From a virus (Duplodnaviria; Heunggongvirae; Uroviricota; Caudoviricetes): a DNA stretch of 42,021 nucleotides. Of the stretch, positions 909 to 1,665 are shown piece after piece; positions within the stretch are counted from its first letter, which is position 1; the number at the start of each line of letters is the position of its first letter. The translations under genes were made by a program, and so were the position numbers. The DNA lies in the IMG/VR virus record IMGVR_UViG_2703718855_000003, positions 1 to 42,021 of that record. The stretch is one strand, 5' to 3'. The notes under the pieces were generated by a model, which saw only the letters and a program-made list of their open reading frames with translations, ran no database searches and was not told the origin of the DNA.

Positions 909-1642
909 TTACTCAACATTAAATGCTCGTATCGCATCTAAATCCTCCAGAGTGTCTAACGCTTCTTTCTTCTCTCGCTGACGGCGATAAATCTCGTCAT
1001 TGCGTTCAACAACAGCCTGCGCCATTGCTGCTGCCAGTTCTTCCGGTTCCGGCATTGACAGCTTCACCTGCTGGTTTTCCGCATCGCCCCATACCATGGT
1101 TTTTCGCGCTGTGTCAGACTTTGATGCCATTACTGCCGGATAAAGACGAGCCATTGAGTCGGGGCCAGCATTCCAGGTGCGACCGTTCCATTCGAACGTG
1201 AACGGCTGCGCTTCCTGTTCTGTGCTCCACACCTCGATTTCCCGCTTTCTGGCATCCTTTCCCACGGCGATAAGTTCTGACGTGACGGTGAATGCAGGGC
1301 TGTCCAGTGGCGCTTTTGTTTTCGTCTCGTCCGTGACGGTTTTGACAGCCTTTGGCGTGGCTGCCAGTTCTTCGCTGTCGTTGTCTGTATCACTACAGAG
1401 TTGCGCCAGACCTTTTTTGTCGTGGAAGCATTGCTTCCCTTCAGATCATCAACTATCCATTGCGCCTCGTCCCTGTGCTGTTTCGCGCTCTGCTGCGCCT
1501 GCACCACAGTTTCCTGTCACCACATCGGCAACTGTGCGCATCACACCTCTGAGGTGTTTACCCGGGATTTCAGAGTTATGTGGCATCCGTACATGGGGAT
1601 GCCTGCGCCATCAATCAGTGCACCTGATATCACTACAGACAT
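909..1642 (-). pseudogene. Decayed side-tail-fibre-like gene (Stf-type N-terminus followed by stops and a frame change)
   Basis: Minus-strand ATG at 1642 encodes MSVVISGALIDGAGIPMYGCHITLKSRVNTSEV then TGA. This fits the conserved N-terminal pattern of lambda-type side tail fibre proteins as I recall it (M-x-V-x-ISG-x-L-x-DG-x-G-x-P...C-x-I-x-LK). Coding resumes in another frame and ends as track ORF 909..1265 (GTG start, 118 aa). Confidence 0.3.
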
Positions 1643-1665
1643 AGTTTTTCTCGCGATAAATTAAA

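Follow-up and report, generated by a model that had tools for sequence, protein, structure and literature searches.

A probable relic of a lambda Stf-type tail-fibre and chaperone module near the end of a P27-like Escherichia coli prophage

We analysed a 42,021-nt stretch of DNA from a Caudoviricetes virus (IMG/VR record IMGVR_UViG_2703718855_000003, positions 1 to 42,021; hereafter the window). A search around the locus of interest, with 700-1700 (1,001 nt), found full identity to E. coli RM11911 (NZ_CP044313.1). The prophage sits at the Rac site, with recE, kilR and ydaT/ydaV at one end and uspF and ompN beyond the other, and its late region is P27-like, with baseplate J, a 208-aa protein, a first fibre and a Tfa protein (Table 1). 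Directly 3' of the tfa gene, on the same strand, lies a decayed region, 909-1660. It opens with a 33-codon open reading frame (ORF) and closes with a longer, chimeric one, and the genes found beyond the left edge of the window are an RmrA-like gene, uspF and ompN.

At the prophage end, just 3' of the decayed region, are two genes, one at 1-690 of the window (minus strand) and the other the next gene past its left edge. Searched against PADLOC, they matched RmrT (E = 1.3e-59) and RmrA (E = 1.6e-142), and the RmrA-like protein contains HTH_3 and Peptidase_M78 domains. PADLOC itself gives the names RmrT and RmrA only; we take the two together to be RosmerTA, and the genes are a RosmerTA-type toxin-antitoxin defence pair. 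A near-perfect palindrome of 21+21 nt at 695-737 (ACTTCTTGATTTTATCATAAA / TTTATGAAAAAATCAAGAAGT) covers the region's only sigma-70-like site (732-703 on the minus strand) and lies a short way 5' of the rmrT-like gene. This palindrome, for which Rfam returned sub-threshold, miRNA-like matches only, might serve the HTH-bearing RmrA-like protein as its operator, or else act as a terminator in both directions.

Elsewhere in the prophage, the baseplate cluster includes, next to baseplate J on one side and a small hypothetical gene on the other, a gene (5641-6801, minus strand) for a 386-aa protein whose HSDR_N domain (PF04313, E = 5e-14) is of the nuclease type. This protein is annotated as 'type I restriction endonuclease', had no match in a PADLOC scan and may be a moron or defence gene set in the tail module. 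A 478-aa gene at ~20853-22289 (minus strand; NZ_CP044313.1 503841-505277) lies directly after the large terminase, where the portal is expected, and the RefSeq name of its product, 'anti-CBASS protein Acb1 family protein', looks doubtful. The NCBI annotation pipeline (PGAP) flags a gene of the structural region at ~15713-16154 (minus strand; NZ_CP044313.1 509976-510417) as frameshifted and several early-region genes, including DUF551 fragments and ynaK, as partial or frameshifted; the prophage may be decaying more generally.

Table 1 Positions of the decayed region's features and of the neighbouring late genes in the window
Feature	Position	Strand	Details
Baseplate J	4374-5600	-	Late region
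208-aa protein		-	Late region, between baseplate J and the fibre
First fibre, 517 aa	2214-3767	-	Late region
Tfa, Caudo_TAP family	1666-2211	-	PF02413
33-codon ORF, MSVVISGALIDGAGIPMYGCHITLKSRVNTSEV	1541..1642	-	ATG 1642, TGA 1543-1541; RefSeq CDS WP_369698927.1
Lesion 1	1545/1544	-	One G lost from GAAGTGGTGATG (here GAGGT-GTGATG); single alignment gap versus P13-6
Fibre codons 34-47, VMRTVADVVTGNCG	1504..1540	-	Out of frame with the ATG; three-frame translation and alignment
Lesion 2, 191-nt out-of-frame deletion	junction 1504..1515	-	Imperfect direct repeats AGGAAACTGTGG / AGGAAATGGTGG
Lesion 3, 303-nt in-frame deletion	junction 1481..1494	-	Direct repeats AGCAGAGCGCGGAA / AGCAGAGCGCGAAA
Internal fibre segment, codons ~215-287 of the 1044-aa type	1278..1494	-	95% DNA identity to P13-6
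Lesion 4, one G lost	A6 run 1413..1418	-	ACAGAAAAAGG to ACAAAAAAGG, second frameshift; single alignment gap
Lesion 5, in-frame fusion	1278..1292	-	15-nt near-repeat: fibre TTCACCGGCACGCCA, chaperone TTCACCGTCACGCCT
DUF4376 chaperone, C-terminal two-thirds and stop	909..1292	-	PF14301, E = 1.6e-13, model positions 3-104 of 106
Chimeric ORF	909..1409	-	166 aa from CTG 1409 (RefSeq WP_050552954.1) or 118 aa from GTG 1265
12-mer TATCACTACAGA (plus; TCTGTAGTGATA minus), internal copy	1388..1399		Exact match
12-mer, start-proximal copy	1628..1639		Overlaps codons 2-5 of the 33-codon ORF
Terminator-like hairpin	841..865	-	44 nt 3' of the stop at 909; 10 pairs, weak T tail; consensus scan only

The 33-codon ORF begins 23 nt past the tfa stop. 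A first-pass annotation, made from the sequence alone, had pointed to this ATG, to the stop after 33 codons and to a Stf-like N-terminal pattern, all of which we could confirm. The 33-aa peptide matches PF08400 ('Prophage tail fibre N-terminal') over positions 1-33 of 134 (E = 3.9e-11), and the DNA of this stub is 96% identical to the start of the intact fibre genes of E. coli P13-6 and phage phiP27. Only positions 1-33 of PF08400 are in frame, compared with 1-131 and 1-134 in the intact C7 and P13-6 proteins. At this locus the PF08400 attachment domain is incomplete: the frame is lost over codons 34-47, and deletions have taken out codons ~48-110 and ~119-214. A comparison with lambda Stf had been proposed as a check and proved positive: the N-terminus of the intact homologue (~106 aa) shares 42-46% identity with Stf of lambda-type phages (E ~1e-20), which justifies the label 'lambda Stf-type' for the attachment domain, and the first 47 codons of that homologue share 96% DNA identity with the window. 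Judged by its sequence, the 33-codon ORF represents the N-terminal piece of a tail-fibre gene of the lambda Stf type. The stub is probably still translated, since its native start context is kept.

Related prophages carry an intact pair of co-directional genes in the slot after tfa, namely a 1044-aa PF08400 fibre with a 195-aa DUF4376 protein in P13-6, a 477-aa fibre with a 189-aa DUF4376 protein in E. coli C7, and L56 (490 aa) with L57 (188 aa) in phiP27. These pairs and that of phage Rac-SA53 have the same position, strand and gene order as the pieces in the window; they differ in being intact (fibres of 477-1044 aa, chaperones of 188-195 aa), whereas the window copy is fragmentary. The surviving fibre pieces are 95-96% identical in DNA to P13-6, and its DUF4376 segment (909-1242) is 96% identical to the intact chaperone of C7. 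The C7 prophage is near-isogenic with the window (98.1% identity without gaps over 1-1242; 96.6% with five gaps over 1513-4973), and the two are collinear on both sides, with the difference confined to this slot.

Lesions were mapped by aligning the minus strand at base level to the P13-6 fibre (1044 aa) and chaperone (195 aa) genes, in which the repeats and reading frames at each lesion were also checked. The alignment accounts for every base from 909 to 1665 and resolves five discrete lesions (Table 1). Lesion 1, the loss of one G, shifts the frame and thereby makes the TGA stop of the stub; fibre homology past the stub resumes in other frames and ends in the ORF whose stop is at 909. Lesion 2 spans codons ~47 to ~111 of the intact gene, as derived from overlapping BLAST segments (query 1-162 and 151-185), and lesion 3 spans codons ~114 to ~215; both of these deletions have imperfect direct repeats of 12-14 nt at their junctions. 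At lesion 5 the fibre, at codons 283-287 (…PLDSPAFT), passes into the chaperone at its codons 64-68 (FTVTPEL…), so that the two genes are fused near fibre codon ~285 and chaperone codon ~66. The stretch 1278-1292 aligns to both P13-6 genes, the crossover lies within TTCACCG[G/T]CACGCC[A/T], and the fusion is in frame, fibre codon 283 and chaperone codon 64 both starting at its first base. Lost with it are the rest of the fibre (~2.5 kb on the P13-6 scale) and chaperone codons 1-~65.

What is kept in the window amounts to fibre codons 1-47, ~111-118 and ~215-287 and chaperone codons ~66 to the end, with ~130 nt of out-of-frame debris between the stub and the chimeric ORF. The internal fibre segment holds a 'phage tail fibre repeat' (…LCSDTDNDSEELAATPKAVK…APLDSPAFT; PF03406, E = 5.7e-10). 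Across the locus there is no uninterrupted frame from the start to the C-terminal receptor-binding region: the fibre frame is broken by two frameshifts and one out-of-frame deletion, and everything distal to codon ~287 is gone. The alignment with intact homologues that had been suggested thus bears out the earlier proposal of a fibre gene truncated by recombination or frameshifts in a region of modular exchange.

To see how widely this arrangement occurs, we searched 5,426 complete E. coli genomes with a 291-nt probe spanning lesions 2-5. The remnant was contiguous in 15 of them, and the remaining matches covered only the block between lesions 3 and 5, inside long intact fibre genes. An intact gene spanning the lesion 3 junction occurred in none of the 5,426 genomes, and a natural shaft-length allele as the source of the 303-nt gap was accordingly ruled out. 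The 15 genomes form two lineages. In one of these, the EC11 type, all five lesions are present, including the single-base gap of lesion 1, and identity to the window is 98% down to ~1186; past that point it falls to ~80%, and in place of the window's RmrT- and RmrA-like genes there are others downstream, for a Tfa fragment and a YadA-like protein. The RmrT/RmrA pair is also found in the C7 prophage, with the YadA-like gene in its place in EC11-type prophages. Because the same lesions recur in 15 genomes of two diverged lineages, they are real and not sequencing errors, and they are fairly old. The window itself is a mosaic in which the fibre pieces are P13-6-like and 691-1242 is C7-like. Together with the divergence of the EC11 type, this indicates that recombination went on through the decayed region and that the slot is a cargo-exchange boundary.

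The first-pass annotation had also described a 12-nt segment of the start region recurring about 240 bp downstream, which it read as a duplicated start motif. The repeat itself is exact and its copies are 240 nt apart, with the positions 1387-1399 and 1629-1641 corrected to 1388-1399 and 1628-1639, but the interpretation did not stand. Neither copy extends by one base, and the window has 98 distinct same-strand repeats of at least 12 nt, 11 of them spaced by 800 nt or less. The intact P13-6 fibre gene already contains the pair at a distance of 736 nt, and the two copies are translated in different frames (S-V-V-I for the start copy, L-C-S-D-T for the internal one), so that they do not represent a duplicated start motif. 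The repeat is a chance match and neither a duplication nor the product of a rearrangement. A microhomology footprint of a deletion was likewise ruled out, since the intact gene already has the two copies and no junction coincides with either. There is a longer exact direct repeat, the 14-mer GCTGCCAGTTCTTC at 1030-1043 and 1360-1373 (spacing of 330 nt, in frame). On the minus strand its copies both encode E-E-L-A-A, one in the fibre repeat (SEELAATPK) and one in the DUF4376 domain (PEELAAAM).

At the 3' end, reading had been described as resuming in another frame and finishing the fibre as a 118-aa ORF, 909..1265. That ORF exists, but it is the chaperone's DUF4376 domain and not the C-terminus of the fibre. 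In its 166-aa form, the ORF contains PF03406 (aa 3-34) followed by PF14301/DUF4376 (aa 51-159). Going by these domain matches, the 118/166-aa ORF is a fibre repeat joined to the DUF4376 domain of the chaperone. For DUF4376 proteins encoded just 3' of fibre genes, a role as fibre chaperones has been demonstrated or argued, examples being Alteromonas phage V22 gp27, A5 gp9 and the partner of the Campylobacter CJIE1 H-fibre (PMC7289586, PMC10579305, PMC7882524), and the variable N-terminal domain of such chaperones is stated in the general literature to be the fibre-binding portion. In V22 gp27, A5 gp9 and the CJIE1 partner, which are encoded directly 3' of a fibre gene, DUF4376 is C-terminal, as in the ORF described here. 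The latter differs from them in having a fibre repeat in place of the N-terminal domain, no proper start and changes at invariant residues, and in that its cognate fibre is gone. The N-terminal domain expected of the chaperone, ~65-75 aa long and translated from an ATG of its own that is coupled to the fibre stop, is not present at the locus, where codons 1-~65 are deleted.

Could the 3' ORF nonetheless be a functional small protein, starting at GTG 1265 (118 aa) or CTG 1409 (166 aa) and serving as a minimal chaperone or assembly interferer next to upstream debris? Several observations are compatible with this: the DUF4376 domain is complete (E = 1.6e-13), 166 codons are open, the fusion is in frame, the ORF is kept in the 15 genomes and PGAP calls it as a coding sequence (CDS). 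The start signals argue otherwise, as the ORF lacks an ATG and neither candidate is preceded by a Shine-Dalgarno sequence at proper spacing; CTG 1409, the start chosen by PGAP, has AAAGG just 2 nt upstream, and GTG 1265 is without a purine-rich tract. The fibre-binding N-terminal domain present in typical homologues of 187-198 aa is gone, the cognate fibre is destroyed, and a PADLOC scan of the chimeric ORF gave no match. In addition, the window copy carries R62S and L122P at columns that are invariant in 62/62 intact homologues. Both changes are absent from the EC11-type relic, from which it follows that they arose after the fusion. We therefore regard a functional small protein as quite improbable, and the intact protein from GTG 1265 that had been offered as an alternative is not favoured, in view of its missing Shine-Dalgarno sequence and N-terminal domain and its two altered invariant residues.

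Comparison with other homologues gave a similar picture. Among the best 120 of 1,792 homologues, the PF03406+PF14301 architecture was limited to four clusters of 165-166 aa, and these are the same relic; most of the 120 were DUF4376-only proteins of 187-198 aa, and the remainder were partial or shorter calls. For the DUF4376 segment, dN/dS was ~0.2 versus both the intact alleles and C7, a value that we rejected as a test of present constraint, its underlying divergence being mostly older than the fusion. The two remnant lineages differ by just 6 substitutions in the ORF part that they share (4 non-synonymous, 2 synonymous), which are too few to decide.

A different route to a product would be recoding, in which an ORF from GTG 1507 (MVQAQQSAKQHRDEAQWIVDDLKGSNASTTKK) slips by -1 at A AAA AAG into GLAQLCSD…DUF4376 to give ~198 aa. 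Lesion 4 does produce ACA AAA AAG (1413-1419, minus strand) in the GTG 1507 frame, and hence the heptamer A AAA AAG, known as the slippery site of dnaX in E. coli, and a -1 slip would lead precisely into the frame shared by the fibre and DUF4376 segments. Against recoding, the heptamer is the mere outcome of one G lost from ACAGAAAAAGG, GTG 1507 is without a Shine-Dalgarno sequence, and reading the sequence by eye revealed no dnaX-like stimulators at the right spacing. The product would be without the virion-attachment and receptor-binding domains, and the N-terminal part of the gene would be unreachable. We consider this route highly improbable and the heptamer probably an accident of lesion 4.

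The interval between the two ORFs, 1266-1540, might instead be a structured non-coding RNA, an option that the first-pass annotation had set against fibre remains. Its minus-strand fold has a z-score of -2.09, with 6/200 shuffles as good, which is a weak bias in that direction. Each base of the interval is, on the other hand, covered by sequence 95-96% identical to intact fibre coding sequence, and an Rfam scan of 600-1800 with E up to 1 gave no match in 909-1660 and only sub-threshold hairpin matches at 673-765. An RNA is hardly credible on these data.

Nor do the surroundings favour the relic of an invertible fibre-switching segment of the Mu G, P1 C or e14/Rac pin type, for which we see next to no likelihood. 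In its favour, a second fibre-like sequence lies directly past a fibre and tfa, and the prophage is at the Rac site beside uspF and ompN, where K-12 Rac has pinR. All pieces are, though, co-directional with the first fibre, and the intact relatives are arranged likewise, with no inverted pair. No recombinase or serine invertase is annotated in 47.5 kb comprising the whole window and the sequence past its left edge; the invertase that had been suggested beyond that edge is absent, and the genes there are the RmrA-like gene, uspF and ompN. Inverted repeats of at least 18 nt were not found in 1-6000 apart from the unrelated palindrome at 695-737.

Taken together, the minus strand of 909-1660 is best read as the non-functional relic of a two-gene module consisting of a lambda-Stf-type second fibre and its DUF4376 chaperone, a reading to which we assign a probability of roughly nine in ten. 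The relic is an ordinary prophage pseudogene, a case of gene decay of a well-known kind and not a new element. Set against the long intact allele (P13-6 / Rac-SA53 type), it shows two 1-nt deletions, two short-repeat deletions in the shaft and N-terminal part and one large fusion deletion, and the short repeats at the junctions suggest slipped-strand or illegitimate recombination as the mechanism of the deletions. Later recombination inside the DUF4376 segment may then have swapped the downstream cargo, which is RosmerTA-like here and YadA-like in the EC11 type. The relic would have no function of its own, and the phage would assemble the first fibre only, much as laboratory lambda does without side fibres as a result of its stf frameshift.

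Some observations do not sit easily with a relic. RefSeq/PGAP annotates both fragments as ordinary CDSs and not as pseudogenes, a complete DUF4376 domain lies in a reading frame open for 166 codons, two lineages have kept the remnant, and the DUF4376 dN/dS is ~0.2. We give very little probability to a relic that is not inert, either because the chimeric ORF yields a low-level, dominant-negative chaperone-like protein or because the remnant is a homology anchor for cargo swaps. Such a protein would have to be expressed from the late operon, from a non-ATG start or from GTG 1507 with a -1 slip at A AAA AAG, and it could, for example, interfere with the fibre assembly of related superinfecting phages. 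As an anchor, the remnant would supply the homology through which prophages at this site exchange their terminal cargo (RosmerTA-like versus YadA-like).

The relic of the two-gene module has known counterparts. Hendrix and Duda are said to have described, in 1992, that stf is frameshifted in laboratory lambda PaPa (orf401/orf314). Lambda stf resembles the gene described here in belonging to the same N-terminal family, PF08400, and in being inactivated by frameshift with the rest of the tail module intact. The damage in the window is far greater than in lambda PaPa stf, with two frameshifts and three deletions and >85% of the gene gone. Also unlike lambda, the relic sits as a second fibre in a P27-like, baseplate-bearing (contractile-type) cluster and not as the side fibre of a siphovirus. 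We take the cryptic-prophage fragments stfE, stfP (e14) and stfQ (Qin) of K-12 to be truncated Stf-type genes with an N-terminus of the MSVVISG… type. They are like the relic in being truncated Stf-type genes in decaying or mosaic prophages, and they differ in locus and breakpoints; e14 also has an invertase (pinE), and the window has none.

For annotation, WP_369698927.1 (33 aa) and WP_050552954.1 (166 aa) represent pieces of a single decayed fibre-chaperone module, and a pseudogene flag would suit them better; host-range prediction should score the prophage with one fibre and not two. Importance beyond annotation is little. Within that limit, the relic offers a clean, base-resolved case of how a fibre module is lost, through deletions between short direct repeats and single-base frameshifts. 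It also marks the slot just before the prophage end as a recombination boundary at which defence cargo varies among otherwise similar prophages.
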